From NCBI GenBank assembly GCA_000182565.2, contig KQ257459.1: a DNA stretch of 44,364 nt; one strand, written 5' to 3'. Source of the DNA: Spizellomyces punctatus DAOM BR117 (taxonomy: Eukaryota). The notes beneath the pieces were generated by a model that made no database searches, had not been told where the DNA came from, and was given only the letters and a program-made list of their open reading frames with translations. The translations under genes and the position numbers were made by a program. Positions 1-22,659 of the stretch are shown here, one piece after another (within the stretch, counting starts at the first letter, position 1; each line of letters begins with the position of its first letter).

Positions 1-710
1 GCTACGACCCGATCGGGGAGCCGCGGCCAATCGCGCATCTGCGGGTTTCAATTGCCTGGCTTTTTCATACGACTTTTCATAGCACCATATTTTTTTCCTT
101 TCCTTTCCTTGTAACGCATAGTTGTCTTTCAGAGACGGGAATGCAAAAGAAGCAGAAGGAATGAATTCATATGCAAATTCCGATGGCCAGTGGTACTTGG
201 GGTGAAACTCAAAGTTGCGGTCGGGTTTTTTACTTCCGATGCATTTGAGATGGTTGGACAGATAGTCTTCCAAGTGCTTTCTTTTGACAAGACACGGCCA
301 TTCGGGCTTGCAGTTCCAATCAGTTTTTGTCAAACCCACACACGAACATACCCCATCTCTGCTTATAGCCAAACTTATTACCTGGTACATTAAAAAGTTG
401 TTTGTTCAGATCCGTGGGTGTGCAATGGCATTTCAAAGACATCACCCGACATTGTACATCTTGGTTAGCCAGCCATTTTTGCCCACTGGTCGCAATTGAC
501 TTCATCTTTTCCGGATCTGCTGCGGATGCACATCTCCAATGAAAGCTCATCGCAGCATGATTCTCCAGCAAAAGCATCCAGTTTGATCTTCCGCCATGTC
601 CATGATGTCGTCTCATGCAAGAGCCTTCAGCTCCAATATTTCACTTCAGCGTTTCTCACCTGCCCTAATCATCCAGTTCTTGATATCTTGCTAACTTTAC
701 GCCCCGAATC

Positions 711-2030
711 ATGTCGTCCCAAACCCAACAAGCGATCAACTATCGCTCTCCTCGCATTTTGACCCAAATTGGATGGACAACTACGAAAGCCCTCAGATTG
801 GCTTGTATCAATGCATATGGGGACGAAGGTGATGTCGTTGCTTCCATTGCCCATGTCGCTTGGAAGATCTTCGTTGGCAAAATCCCAAAGGTTAGATTCG
901 ATTTTGTCTCGCTGCAGGAGAAGATCATTGAGAGATGTCATCATTTTCATACTTACAATGTCCAGACTGCTGCATATCGGCACCTAATAGCCAATGCACA
1001 ACAAGAACTGGAGAACAATGCTCAAGGAGAGTGCACTGCGTATGGCGAATGTGCAGCAGATGCAAATGGACGTCCGCTGCAAGCCGCTTTTCGTGTCCTT
1101 CAACAGAATAGTACGGATGAGCCCATACCTAATGTACAGGTTAGAGCGACATGCCAAAAACAAACTTTGAGCACCATACGACCCACCTGCACTCCCCTAA
1201 CGTGTCATTAACATACCGTCTTTCTAGACTCATATCGTGCTCGAAATGCTCCTCAACGAAGACACATTTGAGTTCCGCGCCATCCTCCACTCGGAGGAGA
1301 TTTCCGACGAGGCTGGAATAACAGTCCTGCGCGAATTAACAAACATAATGCGTGAGATCATCGACATACCCGAAGCAGCAGTAAGATTGCCTGCTAACAG
1401 TACCGATAGTGACCTTACCGCGAGCCTGTTTCCAAACCTCACCGGGAAGATCCATCACCGTGGACATACCGTCAGCCTTGACGCAGTTTCGCACACTTCA
1501 TTCATCATTAAGGACTTGGACGGCCACCTCCGAGCCCTCGAAACCACGCCTGAAACGCTCGGTAAAGCCGCTTGGGCAAAGCTTCTTACTCACTACACTG
1601 GGGAAAACGAGGCTGAATTCGGGTTACTTCGGGGTGACAACGACTGTATTGTCCCAGTCCAGCTTTCTCTAGATGAGATAGACAACAATGTGGCCCTACT
1701 GCAAAAGCTGATGGAACAGGAGCAGGTGGCCAGGATAGACTTAATAGATCGTAGATGTGAGACCCTGCTGCAGTATGGAAGGACGCCCACAGCTATCAAG
1801 TCTCACGGGGTGAGTTTTGACCTTTCAGCTCCCAGCATTCGTATCATGCCATCGCTGTGCTAAAGAAATCTTTTAGACTATCCTCCACTTGATCATGCAC
1901 CCAACAGATGAAATCGATCAGTTCAAGCTCACCGTTCATTATAATGAGAAGCTGTTGCCCCGACGACAAGCCATGTTGCTGCTTCAACAATTTGAGCACG
2001 TCTACCGCGGAATACTAGAAAATCCCTCCG
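711..2030 (+). other. N-terminal NRPS region: two tandem degenerate C-domain C-terminal halves
   Basis: HVAWKIFVG..VRFDF and LFPNLTG..KAAWAKLLTHYTGENEAEFG resemble the FP.LSG..QAAWAKLLSYYVGEPDVTFG segments of the intact C domains. Each is followed by a C-domain terminal helix (VLRELTNIMREIIDIP; LLQQFEHVYRGILENP). No HHxxxDG motif. Confidence 0.65.
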
Positions 2031-5000
2031 CCCCACCACTAGAGCTTGCTGACACATTTACAGAGGACCTCCTGTCCATCACTATCGCAACAAATCCAAA
2101 CGTCAATACAGAATCGGCACCATTCCTTCACTCATTCTTTGCAGCTACCGCGTTACGCTGCCCGTCAAATGTAGCGCTAGAGTTTATCACGTCCATGTCA
2201 CCATTCTCCATACAGTCATGGACGTACGCATCCCTCGAGAAGGAATCAAACAAACTCGCCAACCTTCTCATTACGGCTTACAATGTCCAACCTGACGACA
2301 TTATTCCCATCTGCATGGAGAAATCAGCATTCATGTACATATCGATTCTCGGTGTGTTGAAGGCAGGGTGCGCATATTGCCCGATCGACTGGCAAACTCC
2401 AGTTGAACGAGCCCAATATATCCTCGAAGAAACCAAGGCACATGTCATTCTCATCTCCGGCGACGGACGCAAGCTTGCCTCACACCCACAGTTTCCCTCT
2501 GACGTGGTCGTGCTGCAGCTGGATGACTCTGCGTCGCCATTCCACACGTCGCCGGAAACCACACCACCGGTTCCGGCACTTTTGACACACCACCTTGCAT
2601 ATGTCCTTTACACCTCAGGTACAACTGGACGCCCGAAAGGCGTAATGATCTCTCACGACTCGGCCACTCGATCAATCCAATCGCATTGCGCAATGGTTCC
2701 TTGCAGGAAAACAAGTAAATTTCTCCAGTTTGCAGCAACTACGTTTGATGTGTCAATATTCGATATGTTCTTCACTTGGAGGAATGGCATCACACTAGTA
2801 GCGGCAAAAACGGAACTGATGCACAGGGACCTAAGTGGGGTTGTCAGAAGTGGTGGCATTACACACTTGGACTTGACCCCAACCGTAGCCGGAACTCTCC
2901 GAAAGCAGGACGTTCCTGGCCTGGAAGTATTATTCTGCATCGGCGAGGCGTTAACTCAAAAGGTTGTTGACGAGTTTGGGTCTGCAAATGGAACCGACTG
3001 CACGCTTCTGAATGCCTACGGGCCAACAGAAGCAGCAATCTCATGTACGATCGCGAACGTCAAGAAAGATGCTGGTACTTTGCCCGCAAATATCGGTACA
3101 CCGTTTCCGACTTGTTCCATCTACGTCATTGCCCGAGGGAGCTTATATCCGGTCCCCATCGGTTGTATTGGTGAACTTTGTCTCGCCGGCACACAGCTGG
3201 CGAGGGGATACTTGGCCCGTCCCGACTTGACAACTGACAAATTCCTCACCTTTCCGTACAATGGTGAGCGGATATACCGCACGGGGGACCTGGTACGACA
3301 ACTATCGGACGGAACAATCGAATATCTTGGCCGAATTGACGATCAGGTGAAATTAAACGGATACAGGATAGAGCTGGCGGAAGTCAATTCTGCTCTGATG
3401 CAGGCAAACAACGGCGTTCAACAAGCGGTAACGATGGTGCTGAGGCATCCTAGTTGGATCCGTGATCAAATGGTCGTGTTCCTTTCTCTCATTGGTGAAA
3501 AGCGGCCTGGAGAGGCTTGCGAGTTCTTGAAAACTTTTGGAAGAGAATCCACTCTGTCGAATGCTGTGTCGTTGGCAAAAAACTTGCTAGCACCATATAT
3601 GGTCCCGAATATTTTTCTGCTTGTCAGCAAAATTCCCTTGGGGACGGCGGGGAAGGTCGACCGTAAGTGCTTGAAGCAAATGTTCTTATCCTTGTCCGCG
3701 GAAGCTCTCCAAGATATGCTTGGAGGACACACGTCAGAGGTAGGTGTGAATGAAAAATGGACCGCCGAACAACATTTTCTTCGACAGATAATTGCAGAGA
3801 CAGCTGCAGTCCCACTGCACACTGTTGAAAAGGACACGACGATATTTCACGTTGGCATCGATTCAATCGGGGCAATGCGTTTCGTTGCACGGCTGCGAGA
3901 AGAACGCGGCATTGAGATGTCCATAATCGATGTCATGCAGAATCCGACCGTCGCCCTCATGACCCAATTCATCGATAATCGGGAATTGTCATGCGCAAAA
4001 GTTCAACCACCAGCGGCGAACGAATCGCATGTTCTGGAAGCGTTTGCGAGTCGTGTGCAAGAAATCGTGTTCTCCCAATTGAAGGGTGTAGTGCCGGATG
4101 CTGTGAAAGGGATATATCCCTGTACACCTCTCCAAGATGGTCTTCTGTACGGAACGCAAAAGACGCCTGGTGCCTATTTCACGCACGAGACGTTCACACT
4201 TCACCCCAGCGTAGACCTCGAGACGCTCCAAAGAGCCTGGATGGCTGTCATTGACAATAACGATATCCTACGCACTAGTTTTTGTCATGTTGGCGATTCC
4301 ACAGCCACCTTTGCCCAGATTGTTCACCACAGTGTCAAAATGCGGTGGACCTCCCGTATCGTACAGTCAAAGGAGCTGATAGCTAAAGTGCAGAAAGATC
4401 ACATATCCACCTTTGGAAGCTCCGTATTCACCGCTCAAGACGTTCCAATGTCTTTCGTGTTGTTCGAGTGTGGGGACATCAGGTCTCTTGTCTTGTCCAT
4501 TCATCACGCTCTATTCGATGGATGGTCCTTGCCACTTATTTTGCAAGATGTGCAAACGGCTTACAGCTCGTGCGGCAGCGATCTACCAAAGCGACCTCCA
4601 TTTTCAAGGATGATTCCGCATCTGTTAGGGGACAAGCAGCCCGCAAACAGCAGAAATTTTTGGACCGACGCGCTCAGCAATGTCCGGCCAGTTGCATTTC
4701 CTGGCCTCTCGCAGACGACTGTCTTTACACCCGGCAGCCATACAGTCACCCGCAAAGTCTCGACATCTCTGACTGAAGTAGAGCGCCTATGCCGCCAAGC
4801 AGGCACATCCATTCGGGCGGTGGGACAAGCAACTTGGTCCATCCTCCTCTCTGCCTATCTGGACACACCGGATGTCACATTTGGCCATGTTGTATCAGGC
4901 CGGACCCTCGATGTTCCCGGAGTCGCTCAAGTTATTGGGCCATGTCTGAATACTGTTCCATGTCGCCTGCGTATCGACCAATACAATAGCATTCATGAGC

Positions 5001-8000
5001 TGCTACAGGATATCCAAAGGCAATATGTGAATATGCTTCCATACCAGCATACGCCATTAAGATCTATACAGAAATGGTCTGGTATGGCTAATGGGCTATT
5101 TGACACCATATTTGTGCTTCAAAAGACCGATAATGGTGGACACGGTTACGAGGACGAAATATGGAACTGGGTTGACACAGTTGATGAGGACGAGGTAAAT
5201 ATTCGACATTGTTACATTCATTCAACTTGCTTATGGATTATGTGCTTCTAGTATGCCATATCGATAGAGGTCGAACCCATTGCCACCAATGATACTGTTG
5301 TATTAAAAGCCATTTGCAAGAATGCCCTTTGTTCTCAAAGTCAATCCGAACTTTTAGTCGCCGAGTTCGAAGCCATCATGCTCGGAATTCTTCAACACCC
5401 TTCCAGCAATCCAAATCTACTGCACCAGTTGAACCTGCCGGGATCCGTACTATCTATCAGCCCAATGGCGCATTTACCAGAAACATCTCGGACTGGTGCC
5501 CTCTTCATGCATAGCTTCGTGGAGAATCAGGCGAACACCAATCCCACTGCTGTGGCTGTGAACTTTGTTTCGGAGATCACGAAATCTGGGGAAGCTCTCG
5601 GAGAGGAATATACTTATCAGGCATTGGACCGTGAAGCAAACCGTTTTGCCAATCTGCTACTCGCGAAGGGTCTTACATTGGGTGCCGAGGTGTCGCTCTG
5701 CGCGCCAAAGTCTCTGTCATGGTTTGCTGCATTGCTCGGAATATCCAAAGCCGGAGGCGTTTACGTTCCTATCGACCATGAGGCACCTGTGGATCGGAAG
5801 CGATACATCCTCAACGACGTGGGAAGTAAATATGTTGTCACAATTTCGTCTTTGGAGGTTGAATTGAAAAAGGTGGTACCTCTTGATACGGAATTCATTA
5901 TTCTCAACGACGATCAAACGAGAGCCCATCTTTTTGCCCAGTCAGATCTTTCGCCTTCAGTAGAACTCACGCCTTCGGATCTCGCATATATTCTTTATAC
6001 ATCTGGGACGACCGGCAGACCAAAAGGCGTACTAGTAGAGCATGCTAACGTAACGCACAGCATCGAAGCCCACCGTCACCTTATCAAATGGCATCCAGCA
6101 GCTCGGTTTCTGCAGTTCGCGTCATGCTCTTTCGATGTATCCATTTACGAGATGCTCTTTCCCTGGAGCGCGGGCATGTGCGTGTGCGCTGCAGATAAAG
6201 ATCTTCTTCTCAAGGACCTGGAATTGGCGTTCCGTGCCATGCATATCACACACGCAGAGTTAACCCCGAGCGTCGCTTCAATGGTTAAACGACAAAACGT
6301 GCCGCAACTGGAAGTGCTGCTTACAGGGGGCGAAGCTTTGACTCAGAATGTTTTGGAAGAGTGGGCAGATGGCGAAATGTTGTATAATGCGTATGGTCCT
6401 ACCGAAGCAACAATTGGGTGTACAATGTTGTGCGGAGTTCAGAAGTCCGCAAAAGTTTCGAACATCGGTCGTCCTTTTCCGAATGTTTTTGCCTGCGTAT
6501 TACCGGTTCATGGCGAGCGCCATCCGGTCTTGAAGGGTGCTACCGGCGAACTTTGTGTGGGGGGTCCGTTGGTGACCCGCGGATACCTTGGCCAACCGGA
6601 GTTGACGGCGGCGAAATTCATCAATTGGTCGCCAGTATCATCACCGACCTCTATCGAACGCCTTTACAGGACGGGGGACCATGTCCGTTTGATGGCAGAT
6701 GGCACATTGGAGTTTTTGGGTCGTGTGGACGATCAGGTCAAGATCAACGGCATCCGGATCGAGCTGGGCGAAATCAACAGCAGATTGCGGGCTGCGTCCA
6801 AAAATGTCATCAATTCCGTCACAACGCTAATAGGACGTTCTGGTGCTTTTAAGAGTGAATTGGTCGCTTTCCTCGTGATGGATACAGCTTTCTCAAAGGA
6901 GTGCGAGATTATCCTGTCGAATGAGAAGTTCAGAGAAATTCGTGAAAACATTGTCCCGGTGTTGAAGCGAGAGCTTCCTTTGTACATGGTTCCAAGCTTC
7001 ATTCTTCCTATTACCGCTCTTCCTCTAGGAACGACGGGCAAAGTGGACATAAACCGGCTGAGTGCGCTGTTCCAGAATCTTTCGCCAGAAGCTTTGCACA
7101 GTTGCCAAGCGCCGGACGACATATCTGCAAATGAGAGCTGGACGGACTTGGAGAAGGTTATACGTGACGCGATTGTCAACCAGCGAGAAATCACAGTCCA
7201 CCTCGTTAGTAGAACCAGCACGATTTTTGAGCTCGGCCTGGACTCTTTGAGCGCAATATCGTTGTCGGCCAGTTTGCGGAAAAAGGGCCTCGAGTTATCC
7301 GTGTCTGATATCATGCAGCATCCGACAATTTTGGAGATGGCAAAGTATTTGGAAGCGAGGGTAGACACCGGAGGACGCGAATCCATCGAATTATCAAGCT
7401 CATTGGATGTATTCGCCACATATGAGGAGCAGAGTAGGAAGCTGGCGGCAGAGAATCCTTCCTTGGCCGGAAATATCGAATGTGCCTATCCATGCCTTCC
7501 ACTACAGGAAGGAATGGTGGCGGAATGCATGAAGTCTGGCGGTGCATTGAACATCAACGAAATCACGTTGGACCTAGAACCATGGGTTGAGTTTGAGACG
7601 CTGAGGCACGCTTGGTTACAGTTGCAGGAGCAAACTGATATTTTGAGAACTGCTTTTTTTGCCATGAGCGATGGCAGCTACGGTCAGGCCGTGCTTGGCA
7701 GCAATAGTGGTTTCATAGCTTCTTTTGAGACGAAATCTTACGCGAGTCAGCCTAGTCTTTCGATACTCCTAGAACAACAGCGAAATCAAGTGGTCCAAGA
7801 CATGTACAACATGAAGCCACCAGTCAGCGCATGGGTGCTTCAAAACGAGAACTCAACGAATACGAGATTGTCTATTATAATTCACCACGCGTTGTACGAT
7901 GGTTGGAGTTTACCATTGCTCCTGAACGATTTCAAACGACTGTATCATGGTCAATGCGCTCCTCGGCGCCCGCTGTTTCGTGAGTTTGTTCGTTACGTGG

Positions 8001-11000
8001 AAAATATCGGGCACACCCAGGAGGAAGTGTACTGGAGACGAATATTACATGGCGCAACGAGCTGTCAATTCCCCGACCTTAGTGGGCGGCGCAAAGATAC
8101 GGATGGTAGTCCCCATTCATGCGAAGCTTCCAGACATCTGAGCGCTACCCGCTCAGAACTTGAAACCGCGGCTCGAGCTATCGGCGTTACTGTGCAGGTG
8201 TTGGTTCAAGCTGCGTGGGCCAAATTACTGTCGTACTACGTAGGCGAACCAGATGTGACCTTTGGACATGTTATTTCCGGCAGAACGGCTCCTGTGAGCG
8301 GAGTGGAGCAGATTGCTGGACCATGTTTCAACACCATTCCATGCCGTGTGAATCTCAGTGACAGAAAATTGACGAACAGGCAATTGCTGCAATCAATTCA
8401 AACCCATAATTCCACGGCCATATCGCACCAGCATGCATCTTTGAGGTTGATCAATAGATGGATCGGGGCGTCCACCGAGCAGCCACTGTTCAACACAATT
8501 CTTATATATCAGAAGACAGAGGGATGTTCCGCCGAAGATAATTTATCTCAATTGTGGAAAGAGGAGAAAGATGGTCAAGTTGAAATCGACGTAAGTTCCA
8601 TCCTGACACGCTGACTGGGTCCTCGTACAAAAGCACTCATTAGTCCCGAATTTAGTATCCTGTCTCGGTAGAAGTAGAGCCTCTTGCAAATAACAGGCTT
8701 GCTCTTCGCATATTGTGCCGTAGCGATGTAGTTCCAGAAGAACACGCGAACTTACTGGCACGACAGCTGGAATCCGTTTTGCTAGATTTGACACTCCGAC
8801 CAGACGGAGTTGCCGCGGATATCCCATTTGATGAGCAGGAGGTCGTTTCTATCTCTAACCCTACTCCAACCGTTGTGTCTGGCCTCCTTCACGGAGCCGT
8901 TGAAAAATATGCAGAAGAAAGCCCGAAAAAAATTGCCCTCGAATGGGCGATGTCGATATCCGACACCACCATCGATATGGAAACGTGGACATATGCAACC
9001 TTGAACGAGCAAGCAAATAAGATTGCGCATCTTTTGCTGTCGAAAGTTCAAAGCTGTGCAGTTGTGCCCATCTGCTTAGACAAATCCCCCCTCTCCTACA
9101 TGGCAATTTTGGGAGTGCTCAAAGCTGGATGCGCGTACGTTCCTCTCGACCCAGCACTCCCGCTTGACCGACGGCTGTTCATTGTGAAAGACACGAAGGC
9201 ACCCGCAGTACTTACCACTAGTCAATATGCTGCAGCGCTTCAAGGAGGGAAAGCGATGGATTCGTCCTTCGATATCATATCCCTGGATTCGGTAGATCTT
9301 CAAGGTCAATCCGCAAGAAACCCCCGAGTTGCGACAAATCCTTCGGATCTCGCCTACATACTATACACTTCAGGAACAACCGGTCTACCCAAAGGCGTCA
9401 TGGTCGAACATGGCAGCGCAACAGCGTGTTTGCACTCATTCCAGAGCATGTTACCGTGGCGTCCTGTATCACGTTTTCTTCAATTTTCATCGTTCTCCTT
9501 TGATGTTTCTATTTCAGAAACATTCATGCCGTGGCTCGGGGGCCACACGGTGTGCACTGCAAGTAAAGATACCCTGCTGATAGACCTAGAGCAAGCCATC
9601 CGCATGCTGAAGATTACTCATGCTGATCTGACCCCAACGCTGATTACCCTTCTTCATCGTGACCGCGTACCAGATCTGAGAGTTCTCATTACTGGGGGCG
9701 AGATGATACCGCAAAAGATATTGGATGAGTGGGCCGGATTGAACGATATATCTCTGTACAACGCGTACGGCCCAACGGAAACGACGATCAATTGTGCAGT
9801 CAACCGACAAGTGAAGCGATCCGCCAAACCTGCAAACATCGGACAGCCACAGTCGAGTTGCTCCATTTACATCTTGTCGCAAAGCCTACAGTGCATTCCA
9901 ATCGGTGGAATTGGGGAATTGTGCGTCGGCGGGATTCAAGTCGCTAGAGGATACCTAAATTTGCCTAAATTGACACAAGACAAGTTTTGCACATTCCTGA
10001 ATCCTCTTTCTGGAAAAGAGGAACGTGTGTACCGAACGGGAGATTTGGCGCGAATGCTACACGATGGAAGCATCGAGTTCATTGGCAGACTTGACGACCA
10101 GGTCAAGCTCAACGGTCTCCGAATCGAACTGGAGGAAGTGAATGCAGTACTCTCAGGCTCTGATCCTAACATTTCTAACGTTGCTACGCTGGTTTTGAGG
10201 AGACGCGAACAGCAAAACCATCAACTCGTTTCTTTCATTGCACTCGGAAATGAAAGTGGCGATTGCAAGATAATTAAGGGCGACTTGCATGCGAAGGTAT
10301 TAGAGAATGCGACGGATGCCGCCGCACGAAAGCTGCCGGCATACATGGTCCCGACACACATTCTGTTGATCAATACGCTACCTTTGGGCAAGACTGATAA
10401 GGTGGACCGCAAAGTCCTCGCTACCCTTTACACGGACATCCCCTCGGAAGTCCTGGATTCATGGGGAAGCCAGAATGGAGCCGATGGAATCTGGTCCGAC
10501 GAGGAGAGTCACATCAGGGACGCTTTGGGAGAGATAGCAAATGTGCCTTCAGATACGATCAGTCGTCATTCCTCCGTTTTCCAGTTGGGACTTGATTCAA
10601 TCAGCGTAATTCGCTTGGCATCGTTGTTACGAAAGCACGACATTACATTGACAGTGTCTGAAATCATGGGGAACCCGTCTATAGCACGTATGTCTCACCA
10701 TTTAAAGCATCGTCAGAACGGGATGGAATCAAGACGGCACAATATTGCTCAAGCGAGGAACATGATCGCAAACTTTGAGAAGCAAATCAAGCCTGCGTTA
10801 TTGGCGCGCTCGACGCAGGAGCAGAGCGATGCGATCATCTCTGTTTACCCATGTACCCCGCTTCAGGAAGGAATGTTGGCCGGTACATCGAAATCGGATG
10901 GCTTGTATATCAACCACTTTGTGTTTGAGCTGGAAGAGCACACCGACTCAGAACGCTTATTAGAAGCCTGGCGAAAAGTCATCGAGCAAAACGACATTTT

Positions 11001-14000
11001 TCGCACCAGCTTTCATCTCACCAATGATGAAACCTTTGTCTATGCCCAGGTGGTTAATGAAAAGGTTTGGATGCCCGTGAAGAACATTCAAATCCAGCAC
11101 GGCGGAGATTTCCCCGCCGCGTTCGATGAACATACGAAATGCAGCACAGCGACAATAGGAGATTTTCGCCGACCTCCACTTGGATTTGCCCTCGTACGAA
11201 GTCCATCTCAAGCCTGGCTCATCGTTTCTATACATCATGCTCTCTTCGATGGTTGGAGCTTTTCTCTTACCCTCACGGATGTCCAGGCGCATTATCGCGG
11301 AGTACCCCCACCTTTGCGACCTCAATTTCGATCATTCGTGGAGTCCACTGTGGGACAAGTTGAGGACAAATCTAAGTTGTTCTGGCAGGAAAGGCTAGCC
11401 CGGGCAAATATATCTGAATTTCCAGATAACCTTCATGGGAAGACGTTCAAAACCCACGAAGCCAGTGCACCTCAATTGGTGGAAATCTTTTCAGAAATTT
11501 CGTATGGCGAAGTTGCAACACGTTGTCGCGAGATGGAAGTCAGTGTTCAATCAGTAGGACAAGCGGCCTGGGCTCTCCTTCTGGCTGCGTATCTTGGCCA
11601 GAAGGATGTTATATTTGGCCACATTGTCTCCGGCAGATCAATTCCTGGCTCTGCAGCTGTCATTGGCCCAACATTGAACACCATCCCATGTCGCGTGCAA
11701 GTGGATAAGCATGCATCGAATCTGGATCTTGTTCGCCATGTACATCAATTCAACATTGAAGCCATCCCTTATTACCACACAAGCCTGCGGGCAATCATGA
11801 ACGCATTGGGAAGAAACAAAGATGCTAAACCATTGTTCGATACTATCTTCCTGTTCCAGCAATCGCACCAAGAAGTGCATACGGACGAAACTACGTTATG
11901 GAAAGAAATAGCCGGTCAGGCAGACGTTGATGTAAGTAGCTTTTGTCTGGTATTTAAGCGCATGAGTGACTGCTAATCAAAGGCCATAGTATGCAGTTAG
12001 CATCGAGTTGGAACCTAACGATGACGTCTTAGTGCTCCGCGCGGCATGCAGGCCGAGCCTGATGCCCGAGGATCAGCTGAATCTTCTCTTACGCCAACTG
12101 GATATGATTCTCAGGCATATCATCCAGGAGCCGCACGGAAAGATTGGCGATTTTAAAACACCGGCGCTCGATCTCATGTCTATTCAGCCGCGAAAGATCC
12201 CCGACTCACTGGTCCAGAAAAAGAGACGATCCTGGTTCTGTCCGCGGAACTTCAAAACAAATCACACCATCGATACGATGCATCAATTCATCGAGAAGCA
12301 CGCAGCCGCTTCACCGCACCGGATATGCTTGGAATTCGCTTCGTCGATCTCGAAATCTGAAATCCATAGTTGGACCTACCGTGAATTCAATTCCAAAGCG
12401 AACAAACTCGCACGTTTTCTGCGCAATTGTGGCGTTACCCGCAATATGTTGGTGCCGATTTGCCTCAAGCAATCTCCTTGGATGTATCTGGCTATCATAG
12501 CTGTTTTGAAGGCTGGTGCTGGGTATGTGCCCGTCGACCCGCAAGCACCGGCAAAACGGAAGACATATATCTTCTCGGATGTAGACGCGAGTTTCGTTCT
12601 TACTTCCCCAGACATTGCAGATATTATGGAGGAGCTTGAAGACGGGACACCGAGGCAATATATCTGCGTTGATGATTCTATCGAGGGTAGACTCAAGACG
12701 CTATCAAGTTCGAACCTGCCCAATAAGGTTACCCGAAATGACCTCGCGTACGTCATCTACACCTCGGGGACAACAGGGTTGCCCAAGGGCGTCATGATCG
12801 AGCACGGCAGCGCTGTAGTTGCAATCGAATCTTTCCAACGGCTAATTCCAGCTGACCAGCACGCGCGATTCCTTCAGTTTGCCTCATTTACATTTGACGT
12901 ATCGATTTTCGAGATGTTCTTCGCATGGAGTATGGGACTTACTCTGGTAACAGCGCCGCGGGATGTGCTGTTGGCTGACTTAGAGTTGGCAATGCGTGTG
13001 CTCAACGTCACACACGCAGATCTAACTCCAACGGTGGCCACATTAATTCGACGTAGTGCTGTACCATCAATTGAGCTTCTGGTGACAGGAGGAGAAGCCT
13101 TGAGCCAGCAAGTCCTAGATGACTGGGCTGGTACTTTGTATAATGCATATGGCCCTACTGAAGCCACAATCGGGTGCGTGCTGAGGCCAAGCGTATCAGC
13201 CGAGATCCGCCCAACCAACATTGGGCATGTATTCGACTCGTGCTCCGCTTTCGTCTTATCAGAGGATCTGAATGTTATACCACGCGGTGGTGTTGGTGAG
13301 CTATGTATCGGGGGACCGCAGGTTGCTCGAGGTTACTTGAAGCGACCGGATCTGACAGCGGAACGGTTCGTTTACTTGCCCTTGGCAAAAGAGAGGATTT
13401 ACAAAACCGGGGATTTCGTTAGAATGTTAGCCGATGGCTCCATTGAGTTTTTAGGACGACAGGACGATCAAGTGAAGCTCAATGGATTGCGTATAGAATT
13501 AGGCGAGATCAACTCTGTCATGTGCAAAGCACATCCCGACATCAAAGACGTGGTCACACTTGTGCTCAAGCACCCGCAACTGCAAAGAGAGCAGTTAGTC
13601 GCCTTTGTCGTCTTGAAGAGTGACTATAGGACGGCGGTGGAGCCTAAGATTATTGGTTCCCTTGCGACATCTACAATTTTGAAGGAAGCACTCAAAGCTG
13701 CTAGGCGAGCACTACCGCTTTACATGGTGCCGGCTCATGTCTTTTTGACAAGCCTGATTCCGCTCGGAAACACAGGTACTGGAATCTTCCTGAAATCGAT
13801 GAAAGTGTTGACGCTAATATCCGCCCCCTTCCCCCTTTTTCTTTTTTTCTCACTACAGGAAAAGCGGATCGTAAAGCTCTCTCGTATCTGTTCTATGACT
13901 TGGACGCGAATTCACTCCAAGCGATGCAGGTGCCGGACATCGATCGTCCTTGGAGCGAACTTGCAAGAGAGATCCGTCGCTGTCTTGCACAGGTCGCACG

Positions 14001-17000
14001 CGTACCAGTGGAAATGATTGGACAAGACTCATCCGTTTTCCAGCTCGGCCTAGACTCGATTAGCGCTATTCGTCTCTCATCGGAGCTGAAAAAAAGCGGG
14101 CTGAACATTGGCGTATCTGAAATCATGCGATGCTCAACAATTGCTTTAATGGAGTCGCATGTGCAAGATAGCCGTGACAAACACCACGAGGACGTCCAAC
14201 TGAAGAGGGATCGCGAAGCATTTTTGAACAAGTTTGTCGAGCGCCACCAACGCGGACTCGATGTTGATCTCAATGATGTTGTCGCAATCTATCCCTGTAC
14301 GCCGTTACAAGAAGCCATGCTAGTTGAAACCCTAAAGTCCACCAAACGCCCTTATATCAATCATATTCCGTTTGATCTGCATCCAAGTGTGGACGTGAAA
14401 CAGCTTGTTGATGCATGGCAGGCAGTCGTTGCTGCGAATGATATTCTCCGTACAAGCTTTCACCCTGTCGAAGATGATAGGTACGGTTATGCCCAAGTTG
14501 TTCAACGGGGAAGCACGGTTCATTTCATGGAGCGGCACCTGGAGCACGACGAAGATCTTCAAACCGTTATTAAGGAGCAGACTGACGTGATATTTAAAAA
14601 TGTGCGAGATCTACGACGACCACCTTTGGGCTTTGCCTTATTGCAGGGACCGATTGGTACCTGTTTGTTGCTTTCGATTCACCACGCTCTATACGATGGC
14701 TGGAGCTTGCCGCTGATCTTACAAGACGTGAGGCGCAAGTACAAAGGAGAACCCCTTTCAGACCGACCCCAATTTGTCACTCTTGTGAAGAGTATTCTGA
14801 CGGAGTCTGAAGAAGACTCCAAACGGCATTGGCTAGCACTGTTGGATGATTGCCATCCGTCTATTTTTCCCACAACCCTTTACGGGACCCATGCACCCTC
14901 TGAGTCTGATGTATCATTTTTTGCGTCGAGAGTGTGTGGCGTGGACGCTACCGACATATCAAAAATCTGCCAGAGTTTGGGTGTTAGCATGCAAGCTGTT
15001 GGACAGGCTGCATGGGGACTTCTCCTTGCTGCCTATCTAGGCGAAGACGATGTGGTTTTCGGTCATGTTGTATCTGGACGATCCGTACAAGTGGACGATG
15101 TTGGCGATGTCATTGGCCCTGCGTTCAACACGATACCAACACGAGTAAAGCTTGCGCAGTGTCGGACGTACGCAGATCTCCTGCGTGCGATTCACGCTGC
15201 AAATGTTTCGGGAGTGCCTTTCCAACACACCCCGTTGAGATCCATTGCCAGGTGGACAAGCCAGTCAGCATATGGTTGGTCCTTATTTGACACCATCTTT
15301 TTGTTTCAAAAAACCGAAGATAGTTCGGAAAGTGGTGAACCGTTGTGGGACATTGCCGAAGGCCATGCGGAAGTGAATGTAGGTAGTCTTTGTGCTGTTC
15401 AGTTGGACATGTGCTAAACTAAGGATTTTTCTACAGCATGCGGTCAGCATTGAGATGGAGCCCACCGGCAAGATTCTCCATCTTCGCGCATCCTGCCAGG
15501 CTAAAGTCATGCCGCATGCCCATTTGACGATGCTCTTAGAGCAGCTTGAGCGGATTATTAAGCGAATAATATCGTGTCCGGAAGAAAGTGTTAGAAGCTA
15601 CGGTATGAAAAGCACCTCACATCTGGCATCAGTACATGAACAAAAGCGCAAAGTGAAAACCTCAAGCATAACTACCCTGCACGGTTTCCTTGAGCACAAT
15701 GCATCTCGTCTCCCCACCCATCCCGCTCTCGAGTTTAGCGCTCCTGTTTTAGCCGACAACTGTGATACTACCATTTTCACCTATGCTGAATTAAATCGCA
15801 AGAGCAATCAACTTGCTCACTACTTTATAAGTAGAGGAGTAACGGCCAACACCTTTCTACCCATCTGCCTTGAGAAAGGAATATGGATGTATTTGTCGCT
15901 GCTTGCTGTCTTGAAAACGGGTGCGGCATACGTCCCCACGGCCCCGGAGATTCCTCCTGAGAGGAAGGAGTACATTTTCAAGGACGTAAATGCTCAATTC
16001 GTGGTCGCCACTGAGCCAGTGTCGACAGAGATTACGTGCGGCAATCCAGACGCGACAGTACTTGTCGTTGATGATCGGATGACAGAGATTCTTCGAGAGT
16101 TTCCTGACACGAATCCTGCTGTTCCCGTTTCGATATCCGACCCTGCGTATGTCATCTACACATCTGGAACCACTGGTGTTCCTAAAGGAGTGGCTATTCA
16201 GCACGACAGCGCAGTTGAGGCATTTACTTCATTCCAAGAACTCATTCCTTGGAATGCTACCTCACGGTTCCTTCAGTTTGCGTCTTTCACATTTGATGTA
16301 TCAATTTTTGAAATGTTCTTTGCTTGGAGTACCGGCATCACTTTGGTTTCAGCACCAAAAGACTATTTGCTGGCTGACTTAGAGCAAGCGATGAAGAAAT
16401 TGAGAGTGACGCATGCAGACTTAACGCCAACGGTCGCTACGATGATCAGACCTGACAACGTTGCTCTTGATATACTCGTAACTGGTGGCGAAGCGTTGAC
16501 GCAGCAGGTCTTGGATGATTGGGCTGGGAAGGGCGTCTTATACAATGCTTACGGACCAACGGAAGCAACCATTGGATGCACCATGCGAAAAGTCGATTCT
16601 AATACGAGTCCATTGAATATTGGCATGCCATTTAATTCCTGCTCAGCTTACGTGTTGAACGGCCCCGAAATCCTTCCCCGTGGGGCCATTGGAGAACTCT
16701 GCATAGGCGGCCCTCAAGTAGCTATGGAGTACATCAATAATCCAAGTCTCACCTCTGAAAAGTTTGCCATCTTGCCGGCAACCAACGAACGCATATACCG
16801 GACTGGGGACTATGTTCGTATGCTCGCAGAAGGATCCATCCAATTCTTGGGGCGGCAGGATGAACAGGTCAAAATGAACGGTCTTAGGATTGAATTAGCA
16901 GAGATCAGTTCTGTCTTAGCAAAAGCCGACGCCGCATCAATTTGCGACGTTGTTACGATGGTTTTAAAACATCCGGCTCAGGAAAGGGATCAGCTTGTTG

Positions 17001-20000
17001 CTTTTGTGAGCTTACTTCCGGGAAGGGATGAGACGGAGAGTTTGCTCGCTGAAGAATGTAAAATTATCGGTTCGGCGTTCGAGTCTCCAGTGTTGAAAAC
17101 AGCGATGGAGATAGCCGCTCGAAAGCTTCCCATTTATATGGTTCCGGGGCTAATTTTCTTGGTGAACAAAATTCCCCTTGGAAATACCGGTAAGAGCAAT
17201 CACACGAACCGCTTAGGTCTGGCAGACAACTAAACTCATCAATACAGGCAAGGCGGATCGGAAAAAGTTGGCACAAATATATCAAGGATTAGACATCACC
17301 TACCTGCGGTCTGCCGGCGCCAACGAAGAATCAGATGATAATTGGACGCAGACGGAAAAGGTGATTCGGCAATGTCTCTCGGAGGTATCAGGGGCTCCTT
17401 TGCAATCTATCACCCGACACAATACGTCCATTTTCCAACTTGGACTTGACTCCATCAGCTCGGTTAAGTTATCTTCAAAGCTCAAGAGCCATGGCATTGT
17501 TCTACCTGTACCCGACATTATGAAATTCCCCACCGTAGCTCGACTATCGAGTCGGCTGTCGGAATTTAATGCTGATTTGGAAAAGGAGAAAGTGGAAATG
17601 GCCCAAGCTGCAAAGCGTGAGAAGATTCTTGTGGACTTCGACGCAAAGTTCACGCCTGTTGTTCTGGAAGAGTCTGGCTTGGAGGATGGCGCTGTGGCTG
17701 CTGTCTATCCTTGCAGCCCGTTACAGGAAGGAATGATTGTCGAGACCTTGAAATCCGAAGGGAGGCATTATTTGAACCACGCCATTTTTGAGCTCAAATC
17801 AGCGGTGGATGTGCAGAGGCTGTTGAATGCATGGGAGTCGGTCATTCGAGCCAACGACATCCTCAGAACAGGTTTCTATTCCGTTGACAGTCCTTTATGC
17901 GGCTATGCGCAAGTTGTTCTCTTGAAGTCCAAGATGCAGCTTACCGTTGAGTATCTCTCCAGGAATGACCAGTTGCGGCCTGCGTGCGAAAGGCACATCC
18001 AAAATGTAACTCGTTCGATGCTCGATTTACGCCAGCCACCAATTGCTTGTGCAGTGCTTCATGCTCCCCAGCAGAAGTGGCTGGTCGTGACGCTTCACCA
18101 TGCGTTGTACGATGGTTGGAGCTTGCCTTTGATATTAGACGATGTTCGAAAAGCGTACATGGATCTGGAGCTGACAAGGGTGCGACCACAATTCAAAGAA
18201 CTTCTGAAGTATATCTTGATGGATTCTCGAGTGGATGCCCAAGAACACTGGAGCAATGTCCTCACGGGTTTTACACCAACGGTGTTTCCAGATACCCTGC
18301 TCGGTACCGCATATATATCCGGAACATCCAAGACCTCCACCCATTTCGAATCGAGGATAACTGAATTGAAGGTTGAAGAAGTGGCGGCCGCGTGTCAGAC
18401 ACTAAATGTCAGCATGCAATCATTTGGGCAAGCGGCCTGGGGTCTGCTCCTGGCTGCCTACACCGGCGAAGCCGATGTCATATTCGGGCGAGTGATATCT
18501 GGTCGCTCCATCCCCCTTGACGGAGCTAATGATGTTATTGGGCCATCCTTTAATACGATCCCCTGTCGCGTCCAAACGGAAAATGTCTCCAATGCACAGT
18601 TGGTCACCGCTGTCCACAAGGCAAATATTGATGCCATTCCCTATCAACACACTCCCTTGTCGTGGATTCTAAAATCGACAGAGAAGAATCGCGATGGCCT
18701 GCCGCTGTTTGGAACACTATTTTTGTTCCAAGTCGGATCTGGTGAAAATGAAGATGACGATCACCCACTCTGGACAACGATTGGAGGAGAGGCAGAAGTG
18801 AATGTGAGTTAATGAAAGTTACTTCAGTCAAATGCAACCCCCCTTAACTGAGTCATGCGCATCTGTTACCAGTATGATGTTACCTTGGAAATTGAGCCGA
18901 CAGGCCCCAATTTTGCGGTCAGAGCTACATGCAAAACCTCCATCATGCCGACATCCCATCTCTCTACTCTTCTGCTGCAGTTCGAACACATCCTCACAAA
19001 CCTTATCCGAAATCCAGATCGCCGCCTTTTGCCGTTGGATGATCCGTTGCCTGACAGAATGATGTCCATCATACCGCGGACTCGCGACGCCAACGTTGGT
19101 GGCATGCTCACCGATCAACCACTCTATCTGCATACATGGGTGGAACATAACGCCCAATCGCAGCCCGATGCGATGGCGTTACAATTTGCGAGAAGCACGT
19201 CGCTAACGCAATATCCAGAAATTGAGACAATTACATACGATATGCTCAATCGGAAGTCCAATCGTATAGCGCACTTCTTGATTTCTCGCGGAATTCGTCC
19301 CGAGACCTTTGTCCCGCTTAGTATGGACCGGTCTCCTTGGTATGTGTTATCGTGAGTTTCGCATTCGATGTAAGAAGTCTTACATTTTCTTTCCTTATAG
19401 GATGTACATATGCATTCTTGGGGTACTCAAAGCTGGAGCAGCGTACGTTCCCATGGATCCTGATGCCCCACCCGAGAGGAAACGGTTCATGCTCTCTGAC
19501 GTTGGAGCAAAAATTGTCCTCACAACTGCAAGTGATGCAATGAACCTCAGGACTTGCTGTCCGGATGAGATAGAAGTCATCTGTGTTGATGAGTTGGACG
19601 ATCTCATCTCAACATACCCACAGACAAACCCACATGTTGAAGAGTTCCCTCAGTCAACGCTCGCATACCTGATTTACACTTCAGGCACCACCGGGACGCC
19701 AAAGGGCGTAATGATCGAACACCACTCTGTGGTCGAAGCCATTCTCTCTTTCCAAGAACTTATACCGATAAGTGGAACTGCCCAGGCACGATTCCTCCAA
19801 TTCGCTTCATACACTTTTGACGTGTCGGTTTTCGAAATGTTTTATACATGGAGCATGGGAATGGTAGTTGTGAGCGCGCCAAAGGACGTGCTGCTTACCG
19901 ATTTAGAGAATGCTATCCAAATCCTCGGTGCCACCCATGCAGATTTGACCCCAACCGTAGCTGCCATGGTGAGGCCGGAAAATGTACCAAGCTTGAAGGT

Positions 20001-22659
20001 GCTGGTGACGGGAGGCGAGTCTCTGACCCAGCATGTAGTTGATGCGTGGACTGGAGATGGAGTCACACTTATCAATGCTTACGGACCGACCGAAGCCACG
20101 ATTGGCTGTACCATGTTTGTCGGAGTCGAGTCTACCACCCAACGAAATAATATTGGACAAGTGTGGCCGTCTTGCTCGGCCTATGTTGTCTCCACATCAC
20201 ACGATCTGCTTCCGCGCGGTGCAGTTGGAGAATTATGTGTCGGCGGTCCACAGGTTGCCCGAGGATACCTCAACCGCCCCGATCTCACTTCTTCAAAATT
20301 TATCCAGCTACCTGCTGGCGGGGAGAGAGTATACTGCACTGGCGATATTGTGCGCTTACTTCCAGACGGATGCGTACAGTTTCTGGGACGGCGGGATGAT
20401 CAAGTTAAACTAAATGGATTGCGCATTGAACTGGGCGAAATCAATGCGGTAATTACAAAATCGGATCCTTCTATAACGGACACGGTTACAATGGTAGTTA
20501 AACATCCGAAGCAAGTTCGAGATCAGATCGTTTCCTTTATCGGATGCGACAGGGATGTTAGGCAAATCCAGATAGACAAGTTCGAGAACATGCTGCTGAA
20601 AGATGACGATGGAACTTCTACCAAACTTATTTCAGCTGCGTTGCATGCGGCGCGACGTCACCTGCCGGCGTACATGGTTCCCTCGCTCATCGTTCCACTG
20701 ACTGGTCTGCCGCGAGGGGCAACTAATAAAGTAAACTCGTCTGCCCTTGCCCGAATGTTCAAGAATTTGGATTTCAAGCTGGTTGCCAGTCTTACGAAGC
20801 AGATGGAAGACAGCGACGGCGGCATTTCGGGCGATCTTGCCGAAACAACTTGGACAGACCTGGAGAGCGCCATCCGGAATGTTTTGGCCGAAGTCTCTTC
20901 ACTCTCTCTGGACGAAATTACGCTGCGAGCCTCAATTTATCATCTTGGATTGGACTCCATCAGTGCGATTCGCGTATCGTCCAAGCTTCGTGGATTGGGT
21001 ATTCACATCAGCGTTGGAGAAATACTTCGGCAAAAGACCATCAAGAACATTGCCGACTTTTTAACTGAAAGAGACAGACTTCCAGAATACAAACATCAAC
21101 CTGGTGCTACCCGGTTGATGGCGCGTGAACTCGTCAAAAACTGGATTGGAGAAGATTTCCTCAGTATTGACCTTCCCAACCGGTTATCGACATCAATGCC
21201 TGCCGTTGCAGGCGTATATCCAGCGACGGCGGGTCAAATCTTCACCCTTTCCTCCTGGCATATGTCCCAAGGCAGATACTTTATGCCATCCTTCATCTTC
21301 ACATCGCGCGATGCTATTGATGTACGCCAGCTCGAAGAAGCGTGGATTGCACTCTTGAAGCGTCATGAGATCCTGCGCACCGGTTTCCTTTCCACATCCT
21401 CACAAACGGCACCCTTTGTGCAAATTGTGTTTGCTGATCCAGTCGTAAACTGGTCGTGCGAAGCTTTTGACATACCATTGGAGGAGAATATCGTTAAAGA
21501 GCGTGTCGAGTACGAAAAAATGCAACCTGCGGTGGTTTCTTCACCTCCTGTACGCCTTCATTGCATGGCATTCCAGGATCGCGCAGCTTTGGTGCTTACC
21601 ATTCACCACGCATTGTATGATGGATGGAGCATTCCGCTTCTTCTTTCAGATCTTTCGACCCTTTACCGCAAGCAGCCATTGGCGGAACATAGTGTACGCT
21701 GGTCCGACTACCTTGAGTACGCTTTCGAGACACGTCAATCAATGGATAATAGCCCTCAGCAAGAATATTGGCGTAAAATGCTGGATGAGACAGGGACAGC
21801 CTTCTTCCCACATTTGAACGCCTCGTCCCCAAATTCGACAGACACTGCTCTTTATGTGCCCGTTGCAATCCCTAATGCTGCAAAATATACGTCAGCGTGC
21901 CAGCGGAAAGGAATCACCCTTCATTCCCTATTCCTTGCCGCCTGGGGACAACTTCAAGCCAAATACACCAATGCCAACCATGCATTATTCGGACTTTACC
22001 ATTCCGGACGATCCATTGGTATCAGCGACGTTGATACCCTGCGTGGTCCGTGCGTGAACGTCCTTCCCTTCCAGGTCCGGAATGCAAGAACATTGAGTGT
22101 GTTGGATTGCGCCAAAAATGCGCAGGACGAGTTGGCAATGCAGAATGAAGCAGTGCCTTGCGTGTCGATGCATGATGTTCAAGTGTGGAGCGGTTATCCA
22201 GGCCAGCCAATCGTTAATGTATTTGTTAACTTTTTGATGTTTCCAAATGGTGGAAATGATGGAGATGATGCGAAAGTGGAACTTTTTAAGGCATGCCGGG
22301 TAAGGCGCTGTTGTGATATAGGATCTCTCTATCGATGGCACTGTGTATTTACATCTATTTCACTCTACCAGATGCGAGACTGGGAGACACAAAATGCCCC
22401 AATACCAGCCTCTCACAAAACCGGACTCGACGGATGCCTTGCAGCTCCTCTTCAGGTTAGTTTTTCCATCTGCTCAATCTTTCCGTGCGATAACCGCTAA
22501 ACATTTACTTCACCATAGAATGATATTGATTTGGAAGTCGCTGTTCACAATGATGTCATCAGTTTAGGTCTTTACTGTCCCTCGCATGTTATGTCTATGG
22601 ATCAGGCGGGAAGCGTTGTAAAACAATTATGCGATAGTGTTATAAATGCATTAGATTAG
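711..22659 (+). CDS. Hexamodular non-ribosomal peptide synthetase, ferrichrome-type siderophore synthetase family (SidC/Nps2/Sib1-like), ~7,049 aa; architecture relicC-relicC-(A-T-C)x6
   Basis: Exons 711-1139, 1228-1809, 1877-5194, 5252-8590, 8656-11931, 11990-13775, 13859-15378, 15437-17189, 17248-18803, 18873-19339, 19401-22299, 22372-22455, 22519-22659 join in frame through GT-AG introns (21,150 nt). Six copies each of A3 YTSGTTGxPKG, A5 NAYGPTE, A7 Y(R/K/C)TGD, T-domain G(L/I)DS and C-domain HHAL(F/Y)DGWS. No TE or R domain. The first two exons and the 22300-22371 intron are less certain. Confidence 0.93.
2120..5400 (+). other. NRPS module 1 (A-T-C), approximate bounds
   Basis: YTSGTTGRPKG; T-domain Ser in GIDS at 3863-3865; HHALFDGWS; pocket residues read by eye as DVFDFIAISK. 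Confidence 0.9.
5500..8790 (+). other. NRPS module 2 (A-T-C), approximate bounds
   Basis: YTSGTTGRPKG; GLDS Ser at 7244-7246; HHALYDGWS; pocket DVYELGAIGK. Confidence 0.9.
8880..12130 (+). other. NRPS module 3 (A-T-C), approximate bounds
   Basis: YTSGTTGLPKG; GLDS Ser at 10597-10599; HHALFDGWS; pocket DVSDIGAINK. Confidence 0.9.
12275..15580 (+). other. NRPS module 4 (A-T-C), approximate bounds
   Basis: YTSGTTGLPKG; GLDS Ser at 14056-14058; HHALYDGWS; pocket DVFDVGAIGK. Confidence 0.9.
15675..19015 (+). other. NRPS module 5 (A-T-C), approximate bounds
   Basis: YTSGTTGVPKG; GLDS Ser at 17451-17453; HHALYDGWS; pocket DVFDVGAIGK. Confidence 0.9.
19125..22659 (+). other. NRPS module 6 (A-T-terminal C), approximate bounds
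   Basis: YTSGTTGTPKG; GLDS Ser at 20956-20958; divergent C1 motif YPATAGQ; HHALYDGWS; pocket DVFDVGAIGK; protein ends after this C domain. Confidence 0.9.

Follow-up and report, generated by a model that had tools for sequence, protein, structure and literature searches.

Ferrichrome synthetases of the Dikarya (SidC, NPS2 and Sib1; the 'SID' of Bushley and Turgeon) are nonribosomal peptide synthetases (NRPSs) in which complete modules, each made of an adenylation (A), a thiolation or carrier (T) and a condensation (C) domain, are followed by T-C repeats that have no A domain. The available text of a 2008 survey (PMC2644324) credits to Schwecke et al., and extends, the idea of a hexamodular A-T-C ancestor made by tandem duplication, and it reports no ferrichrome synthetase from the one chytrid genome sampled. 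Large NRPS genes of other non-Dikarya fungi, Mortierella and Basidiobolus, are described in the accessible portions of two reports as bacterial-like and intron-poor, and are read there as horizontal transfers (bioRxiv 10.1101/2020.08.21.262279; PMC7466969); the second takes a paucity of introns to indicate bacterial transfer in early-diverging fungi, its transfer candidates having a median of 0 introns. Here we analyse a 44,364-nt stretch of contig KQ257459.1 (assembly GCA_000182565.2) from the chytrid Spizellomyces punctatus DAOM BR117, hereafter the window, which holds a gene for an NRPS of six complete A-T-C modules whose C-domain ends are interrupted by eight phase-0 introns at one equivalent position. 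The reading we favour, at a probability of roughly 0.7, is that this is one large SID-family NRPS gene, that the eight introns are copies of one ancestral intron, that the exons between them are not the units of duplication, and that modules 3-5 arose by register-shifted duplication.

With the Dikarya ferrichrome synthetases the window gene shares modules that interleave with theirs in trees, the C-domain signature HHAL[YF]DGW, pocket residues close to their N5-acyl-N5-hydroxyornithine (AHO)-type code in four or five A domains, and a phase-0 intron site that recurs in Pezizomycete-like members. It differs from them in having an A domain in all six modules, two N-terminal relic exons, no orthologue of the second Dikarya module, and a flagellated fungus as its host. 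Its closest relatives are Spizellomycetales NRPSs (a 4914-aa protein of Spizellomyces punctatus and proteins of Powellomyces hirtus, Thoreauomyces humboldtii and Fimicolochytrium jonesii), which likewise have an N-terminal C-lobe relic and complete A-T-C where the Dikarya enzymes have T-C only, but which comprise four or five modules, with a single module of what we call the E-type (the lineage of module 3 and its orthologues) against three in the window gene. A 'B-type' module, which corresponds to the second module of the Dikarya enzymes, is present at least as T-C in Spizellomyces, Powellomyces, Thoreauomyces and Fimicolochytrium proteins, and has no orthologue in the window gene. The hypothetical ancestor, as far as the available text of PMC2644324 describes it, resembles the window gene in its six complete A-T-C modules, its tandem duplication and its row of several AHO-type modules, which in the window gene are putative. 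Three of the six window modules, in contrast, are a recent lineage-specific expansion, and the count of six was for that reason not inherited from the ancestor; the feature that looks to be retained is the complete terminal module. Unlike the Mortierella and Basidiobolus genes, the window gene belongs to a fungal family and has 11 introns, eight of them at a site shared with Ascomycota.

Eight phase-0 introns at one position of the condensation domain

Positions 684-22500 of the plus strand hold a chain of long stop-to-stop open reading frames (ORFs) with short gaps between them, all GT..AG. Removal of 11 GT..AG introns from 711-22659 joins 12 exons into a 21,222-nt frame of 7073 codons, whose one stop is terminal, and yields one intact NRPS of 7073 aa (Table 1). 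Two N-terminal relic exons are followed by (A-T-C)x6, for which Pfam gives six AMP-binding, PP-binding and Condensation sets. All six modules (M1-M6) have a full AMP-binding domain, T-C-only units number zero, and both the HHxxxDG motif of the C domains and the serine motif of the carrier domains are intact in six of six. In every large exon the Condensation match ends at about profile position 356-370 of 456, and the following exon opens with about 85-100 residues ahead of its AMP-binding match. Exons 3-5, which a first-pass annotation made from the sequence had taken for one module of about 3.3 kb each, measure 3318, 3339 and 3276 nt, and each consists of a C-tail, A, T and about 360 of the 456 Pfam positions of the next C domain. 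In exon 2, which has no A, T or N-lobe, residues 61-162 match C-profile columns 316-433 with an hhalign probability of 96.4%, and the exon is also matched by module 2 residues 936-1005 (tblastn). The last exon aligns well with the C-termini of six homologues. The N-terminus (711-1809) comprises two relic exons, each ending at a same-site intron; related chytrid proteins have one relic.

The first-pass annotation had placed a phase-0 intron at the equivalent position of each C-domain end, and mapping the introns (I1-I8) on an alignment of the modules bears this out. Aligned with MAFFT, the eight junction windows have seven of the introns after one and the same column, directly 5' of the strand Y-x-[VI]-[ST]-[ILV]-E-x-E, and I2 is off only through gaps that follow. 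We made a junction hidden Markov model (HMM) from 26 junctions in proteins of other species, leaving the window out to avoid circularity; I3-I7 match it on both sides at 111-133 bits, with the junction between positions 71 and 72. When every GT..AG pair of about 40-130 nt around each junction was scored with this HMM, the exact coordinates of the first-pass annotation scored highest for I1-I7, all in phase 0; for I8 the scan gave no splice candidate above threshold. All eight introns are GT..AG; each contains an in-frame stop and, 17-46 nt before its 3' end, a branch-like CTNAN motif, and in four of them the length is, in addition, not divisible by 3. Their GC content is 32-48%, compared with 49.3% in the exons. 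Spliceosomal GT-AG introns have such ends and such a motif; they break the reading frame, and a conserved protein is restored once they are taken out, as is the case here. Splicing itself is predicted from sequence and homology; low-depth genomic contigs from three runs are unspliced and colinear across seven introns, with 0 differences. A chance coincidence of the sites is not credible, as each added intron must strike one particular position out of about 3,300 nt per module, although this argument is reasoned and not computed.

The eight introns first listed all appear real, but the tally fell short by three, the total being at least 11: tblastn of single-exon modules against the window exposed three further frame breaks, in M4, M5 and M6. 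Across all 11 introns a CTNAN motif lies near the 3' end, and an in-frame stop (10 of 11) or a frame shift (the other) interrupts the frame. Among the modules, the intron in the A10 codon is confined to M4 and M5, the sister pair, which fits a gain in their common ancestor ahead of the last duplication; no intron at the A10 site was found among the frame breaks of the Pezizomycete-like loci treated below. A candidate twelfth intron, 22300-22371, is uncertain: it corresponds to an insertion of about 24 aa relative to six homologues, and taking it out raises the orthologue-HMM score from 123.7 to 129.4 bits, but it has neither a stop nor a branch-like motif.

The place of the site in the C-domain fold was examined by AlphaFold2 (AF2) modelling of a homologous C domain that has no intron (L021:9514-10950, from a metagenome), with a 101-row alignment that included 100 other uninterrupted C domains. 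The model has a predicted local distance difference test (pLDDT) score of 92.4 and the fold of a canonical C domain; NRPS condensation domains are the PDB entries that it matches best (8f7f, E 2.6e-30). The modelled junction falls between residues 412 and 413, in a loop flanked by strands 403-408 and 415-422, so that the downstream exon would contain strands 415-422 and 427-435 and helix 441-460, then the linker, A, T and most of the next C domain. Judged by this model, the exon is not a structural module, as it starts within the C-terminal lobe of a C domain.

Family placement and the same intron site in other fungi

When proteins of 1949-5000 residues were searched with module 2 as query, Spizellomycetales proteins came out best (35-42% identity), with Phlyctochytrium bullatum at 32%; Saitoella and Pezizomycetes rank next, followed by many named ferrichrome synthetases at about 32%, and the best 120 homologues listed are all fungal or without a name. 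Trees were made of 34 exon-bounded units and of 49 T-C parts, with bacterial and other fungal NRPS families not among the rows. M2 groups with chytrid modules and, at a support of 95, with the last A-bearing (AHO) Dikarya module, and the T-C part of M6 is sister to the terminal A-less T-C of the Dikarya ferrichrome synthetases (100). The modules thus lie inside the SidC/NPS2-type A-T-C and T-C clade that characterizes the SID subfamily, although the C-terminal A-less T-C repeats of that subfamily are missing, every module having an AMP-binding domain. By these relationships the gene is a member of the fungal ferrichrome-synthetase (SID) family.

Within the gene, M4 and M5 are sisters (99) and the most similar pair (49.8% identity). 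M3-M5 and their E-type orthologues form one clade in the unit tree (97), and in the T-C tree the T-C parts of M3-M5 group together (96) and with the E-type (99). Since four other Spizellomycetales proteins have a single equivalent module, to which the M3-M5 clade is sister, and since M4 and M5 are sisters, at least two duplications are placed within this fungal lineage; on these trees M3-M5 represent a lineage-specific triplication.

A scan of metagenome contigs for the signature HHAL[YF]DGW returned 79 loci, in which the junction HMM found 168 junctions uninterrupted, nine split at position 71-73, and 12 upstream-only matches. Identity to named fungal SID proteins reaches 37% or more in 23 of these loci; among these 23, seven loci that stand for four distinct genes carry GT..AG introns of phase 0 at HMM position 71-73. 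The intron is present at all three junctions of L003 (one by eye), at two of three in L018 (by script) and in L004, L005 and L006 (one by eye), and at one of three in L021 and L022. The best named relatives of the split-junction genes come from Tuber (52%) and from Pyronema or Geopyxis (61-62%), and the four appear to be Pezizomycete-like members of the ferrichrome-synthetase family. Comparison with the introns of Dikarya ferrichrome synthetases, which the first-pass annotation had proposed as a check, therefore recovers the same phase-0 site in another phylum, and since the site is shared with Ascomycota the observation is stronger than first stated. Together with the lineage-specific triplication and the family placement, the shared site argues that the intron is old and that the duplications took place in fungi and did not follow a recent bacterial transfer. 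The earlier claim of growth by duplication inside a eukaryote is upheld on the same grounds, to which the fungal homologues and the A10 intron in M4 and M5 may be added.

At the second junctions of L003 and L004 the shared-site intron is followed by another intron 26 codons on (by eye). This extra intron, which follows ..HFRR or HFRW, leaves a tiny exon holding only the first strand-turn-strand of the C-tail; in L021 it is kept and the shared-site intron is lost. The deposited Pezizomycete gene models P0005-P0007 (Tuber, Geopyxis, Pyronema) give many-fragment matches to the unit profile, which may reflect mispredicted small introns like those in L003 and L004. The remaining 56 loci (L001, L002, L007-L009 and 51 others) are long uninterrupted NRPS frames that carry HHAL[YF]DGW and are 23-32% identical to the fungal family. 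Full-text literature searches, with subscription journals and supplements outside their scope, turned up no paper on an intron site conserved among NRPS modules, and the word 'intron' has 0 occurrences in PMC2644324 and PMC2823734 as available.

Mosaic modules and competing histories

The first-pass annotation had also taken the symmetric 0-0 exon, equal in length to one module, as the unit of duplication. This part of its account is not supported, for M4 and M5 are of mixed ancestry and the switch lies inside an exon. A first hint came from windowed identities, in which the A domains of M4 and M5 are as close to M6 as to M3. In the A-core tree M3 joins its E-type orthologues, and M4, M5 and M6 form one clade with the D-type, the lineage of the module 6 A-core and its orthologues (96/93 in a careful search); the T-C parts of M4 and M5 are E-type and group with module 3 and its orthologues (99). 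Ancestry is therefore not uniform along these exon units, the A-core being D-type and the T-C part E-type, and whichever mechanism was at work the M4 and M5 exons have no single history. Sliding windows and informative sites put the switch at alignment columns of about 598-626, between '..VLKHP' and 'KIIGS', in the stretch from core motif A8 to A9. A direct link between the A10 intron and the duplication joint was considered and rejected, the switch zone lying about 130 nt (about 45 codons) upstream of that intron. The eight same-site introns are all of phase 0 and the exons between them symmetric, but equal phases arise whenever one intron is copied, so that 0-0 symmetry adds no independent evidence. 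Every inter-intron coding length is a multiple of 3, and the earlier remark that module-skipping splices would stay in frame stands to that extent, as arithmetic only.

The history we favour would begin with a spliceosomal intron in a surface loop of an ancestral C domain, immediately ahead of the two final beta-strands and the terminal helix. Each duplication of a roughly module-long stretch would have taken the intron along, so that every C domain, relics included, came to have it at one codon boundary. The site is old: it is present in Pezizomycete (Ascomycota) members as well, and the modules of lineages that apparently predate the chytrid-Dikarya split all have it. One old intron followed by many later losses is the simplest reading; intron loss is widespread in Ascomycota. 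In the two most recent duplications, one module would have become modules 3-5 by a register-shifted tandem duplication, repeated once, of a segment that started in the C-terminal part of the A-sub domain, took in T, the C-body, the intron and the C-tail, and extended to the A-core of the next module. The outcome would be an M4 and an M5 with a module-6-lineage A-core and a module-3-lineage T-C part, and the A10 intron would have been gained in their common ancestor and then copied once. A more ambitious version of this history is tentative, and we would stop somewhat short of even odds on it: the intron would predate the chytrid-Dikarya split, and the whole family would have grown as a single intron-bearing module was duplicated again and again within an early fungus; the chytrid enzymes would represent the complete, non-iterative state, their terminal module having an A domain like all the others, and the Dikarya enzymes would have arisen from that state by A-domain loss; and, more boldly still, module skipping by alternative splicing might vary peptide length.

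Several observations count against the favoured history or its parts. The earlier equivalence of I1, I2 and I8 stands for their downstream sides, which are in register with the junction HMM (E 1.2e-6, 7.5e-11 and 1.1e-4), and not for their upstream sides, which do not align. Exon 1 has no detectable homology (no Pfam match; hhalign probability 0.1% against the C-domain profile), and for want of that C-domain similarity the equivalence of I1 rests on its downstream side. Comparison of the introns with one another gave no significant similarity, the best of 55 pairs being I1-I7 (z 2.46) and I5-I6 (z 2.40). In one RNA run with the same species label, 63 reads fell in window 600-20599, the range covered by the read comparison, with no joint at the listing threshold; I8 and the 3' end (20600-22659) lie outside that range. 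For the mosaic, approximately unbiased (AU) tests do not reject the non-mosaic alternatives: forcing E+M4+M5 together costs 18.9 log-likelihood units in the A-core (p 0.057) and forcing D+M4+M5 together costs 31.1 in the T-C part (p 0.079), and the groups were chosen after the trees had been seen. A tree of the 56-residue C-tail, meant to locate the duplication register, left 20 of 26 inner branches unresolved, and sliding windows gave no D or E signal in columns 0-150; the 5' end of the D-like segment is consequently unplaced, and a register shift is inseparable from gene conversion. Elsewhere, 16 other SID-like loci (37-62% identical to named proteins) have 38 junctions, all uninterrupted, so that a single ancient origin needs many losses. 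Finally, no ornithine hydroxylase, acyltransferase or siderophore transporter was among the 24 window ORFs scanned.

These points bear differently on the alternatives. If the 0-0 exon were the unit after all, multiplied by unequal recombination within introns, the A-cores of M4 and M5 would have come later from module 6 by conversion or swap. The uniform phases and lengths in multiples of 3 agree with this, the whole-unit tree joins M3, M4 and M5, the C-tail and linker (columns 0-150) have no clear module-6-like signal, and the AU tests are only borderline. Yet equal phases do not discriminate, being expected of any intron copying; the tails of M4 and M5 have their top identity with a D-type tail (Powhir_3330, 55% and 45%); recombination has left no trace in the intron sequences; and two duplications plus at least one conversion are needed in place of one register-shifted duplication repeated once. 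We consider this account unlikely, and prefer the register-shifted duplication.

Independent gains at one preferred site per module, through a proto-splice site or an introner-like element, separately in chytrids and Pezizomycetes, would explain why many SID-like genes are intron-free at these junctions, and the conserved motif that the intron adjoins is a possible target. Such gains would, however, have had to strike one codon boundary at least eight times here and more in another phylum, and to reach the degenerate relics (exons 1 and 2) as well; the introns form no sequence family, and their flanks have no common proto-splice site (CAG/ACT, GGG/ACT, GAG/TAT, GAC/TAT, GAT/TAT, AAT/CAT, AAT/TAT, CAG/AAT), which makes this origin very improbable. 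Hardly plausible at all is the view that the intervals are not introns and that the locus is a decaying pseudogene, an assembly error or a recent bacterial acquisition with frame breaks. The nil junction support and very low expression in the single RNA run are what it has in its favour; all 11 intervals are nevertheless GT..AG with branch-like motifs, their removal gives a stop-free 7073-codon frame with HHxxxDG and carrier serine intact in six modules, the first-pass coordinates score highest under an HMM from other species, independent contigs agree without differences, and both the homologues and neighbours such as the Zn2Cys6 factor and CEP104 are fungal or eukaryotic. These two genes, with the 7TM receptor and the squalene or phytoene synthase nearby, fit a flagellated fungus.

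Table 1. Positions of the gene model, its introns and switch zones, neighbouring genes, and same-site introns in metagenome loci (L rows are numbered on their own loci)
Feature	Position	Strand	Length and phase	Description
Exon 1	711..1139	+	143 codons from first ATG	putative coding and start; from ORF and ATG
I1	1140..1227	+	88 nt, phase 0	top-scoring splice; downstream match from HMM position 73
Exon 2	1228..1809	+	194 codons	C-tail (strand-strand-helix), then degenerate relic of C-domain C-terminal lobe
I2	1810..1876	+	67 nt, phase 0	top-scoring splice; downstream-only match
Exon 3, unit M1	1877..5194	+		C-tail, A1, T1, C-body; AMP-binding 8.1e-71, PP-binding, Condensation positions 2-359/456
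I3	5195..5251	+	57 nt, phase 0	in-frame stop is the final codon; 126 bits spliced
Exon 4, unit M2	5252..8590	+		from Pfam and module tree
I4	8591..8655	+	65 nt, phase 0	two-sided HMM match
Exon 5, unit M3	8656..11931	+		E-type in both A-core and T-C part
I5	11932..11989	+	58 nt, phase 0	two-sided HMM match
Unit M4	11990..15378	+		two exons, 11990-13775 and 13859-15378; mosaic
M4 switch zone, D-like to E-like	13577..13645	+		A-sub domain, A8-A9; approximate, hand-mapped
M4 extra intron	13776..13858	+	83 nt, phase 1	splits Gly codon of LGNTG/KADRK, A10 motif
I6	15379..15436	+	58 nt, phase 0	two-sided HMM match
Unit M5	15437..18803	+		two exons, 15437-17189 and 17248-18803; M4 sister, same mosaic
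M5 switch zone	16976..17059	+		equivalent of 13577-13645; approximate, hand-mapped
M5 extra intron	17190..17247	+	58 nt, phase 1	same A10 Gly codon as M4
I7	18804..18872	+	69 nt, phase 0	two-sided HMM match
Unit M6	18873..22455	+		two exons, 18873-19339 and 19401-22455
M6 extra intron	19340..19400	+	61 nt, phase 2	splits Trp codon just before LKAGAAYVP motif
Candidate twelfth intron	22300..22371	+	72 nt, in frame	GTAAGG..CCAG; uncertain
I8	22456..22518	+	63 nt, phase 0	in-frame stop; downstream match from HMM position 74; C-terminal alignment
Last exon	22519..22659	+	46 codons + stop	C-tail of terminal C domain
Squalene or phytoene synthase	26086-27180	+		window neighbour
Rhodopsin-family seven-transmembrane (7TM) receptor	29223-29777	-		window neighbour
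Zn2Cys6 fungal transcription factor	33285-35879	+		window neighbour
CEP104 ciliary protein	37182-40943	+		window neighbour; multi-exon
L003 same-site introns	3997-4049, 10997-11047		phase 0	GT..AG; splice scan
L018 same-site introns	2963-3015, 9951-9999		phase 0	GT..AG; splice scan
L004 same-site intron	4137-4194		phase 0	GT..AG; splice scan
L021 same-site intron	4134-4188		phase 0	GT..AG; splice scan
L003 second-junction region	~7370-7620			Pezizomycete-like locus
L004 second-junction region	~7400-7660			Pezizomycete-like locus
L021 second-junction region	~7360-7580			Pezizomycete-like locus

Predicted product and significance

Pocket residues of the A domains were taken from alignment columns set by motif anchors, which reproduce Table 2 of PMC2644324 for NPS2-type domains. 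M1 reads DVFDFIAISK, near the first-module type, M2 DVYELGAIGK and M3 DVSDIGAINK. M4, M5 and M6 all read DVFDVGAIGK, identical at eight of ten positions to DVLDIGAIGK (FgNPS2 AMP3 in that table), and AHO-activating NPS2-type domains follow DVLDIG(F/G/A)IGK. The available text of the same survey holds that the pocket code is not a reliable substrate predictor in the ferrichrome-synthetase family (PMC2644324). With low confidence, then, we predict a cyclic hexapeptide as the probable product; it would be rich in N5-acyl-N5-hydroxyornithine-type residues and would be assembled without iteration.

The growth of NRPS genes is usually inferred from domain trees alone. Here there are two markers independent of protein similarity, an intron repeated at one codon boundary per C domain and a second intron nested in the youngest module pair. 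Together with the mosaic of M4 and M5, these markers suggest that the natural joint of duplication falls within the A-sub domain and not at a module, domain or exon border, which is of interest for the choice of fusion points in NRPS engineering. The gene and its relatives also place members of the ferrichrome-synthetase family in zoosporic fungi, where the 2008 survey, as far as its available text goes, found none (PMC2644324). Moreover, the presence of complete A-T-C modules where Dikarya enzymes have A-less T-C makes the hypothesis of A-domain loss directly testable. If the intron does predate the chytrid-Dikarya split and the family grew as in the more ambitious version above, it would provide the first gene-structure evidence for the Schwecke/Bushley model of how this family of enzymes was built.

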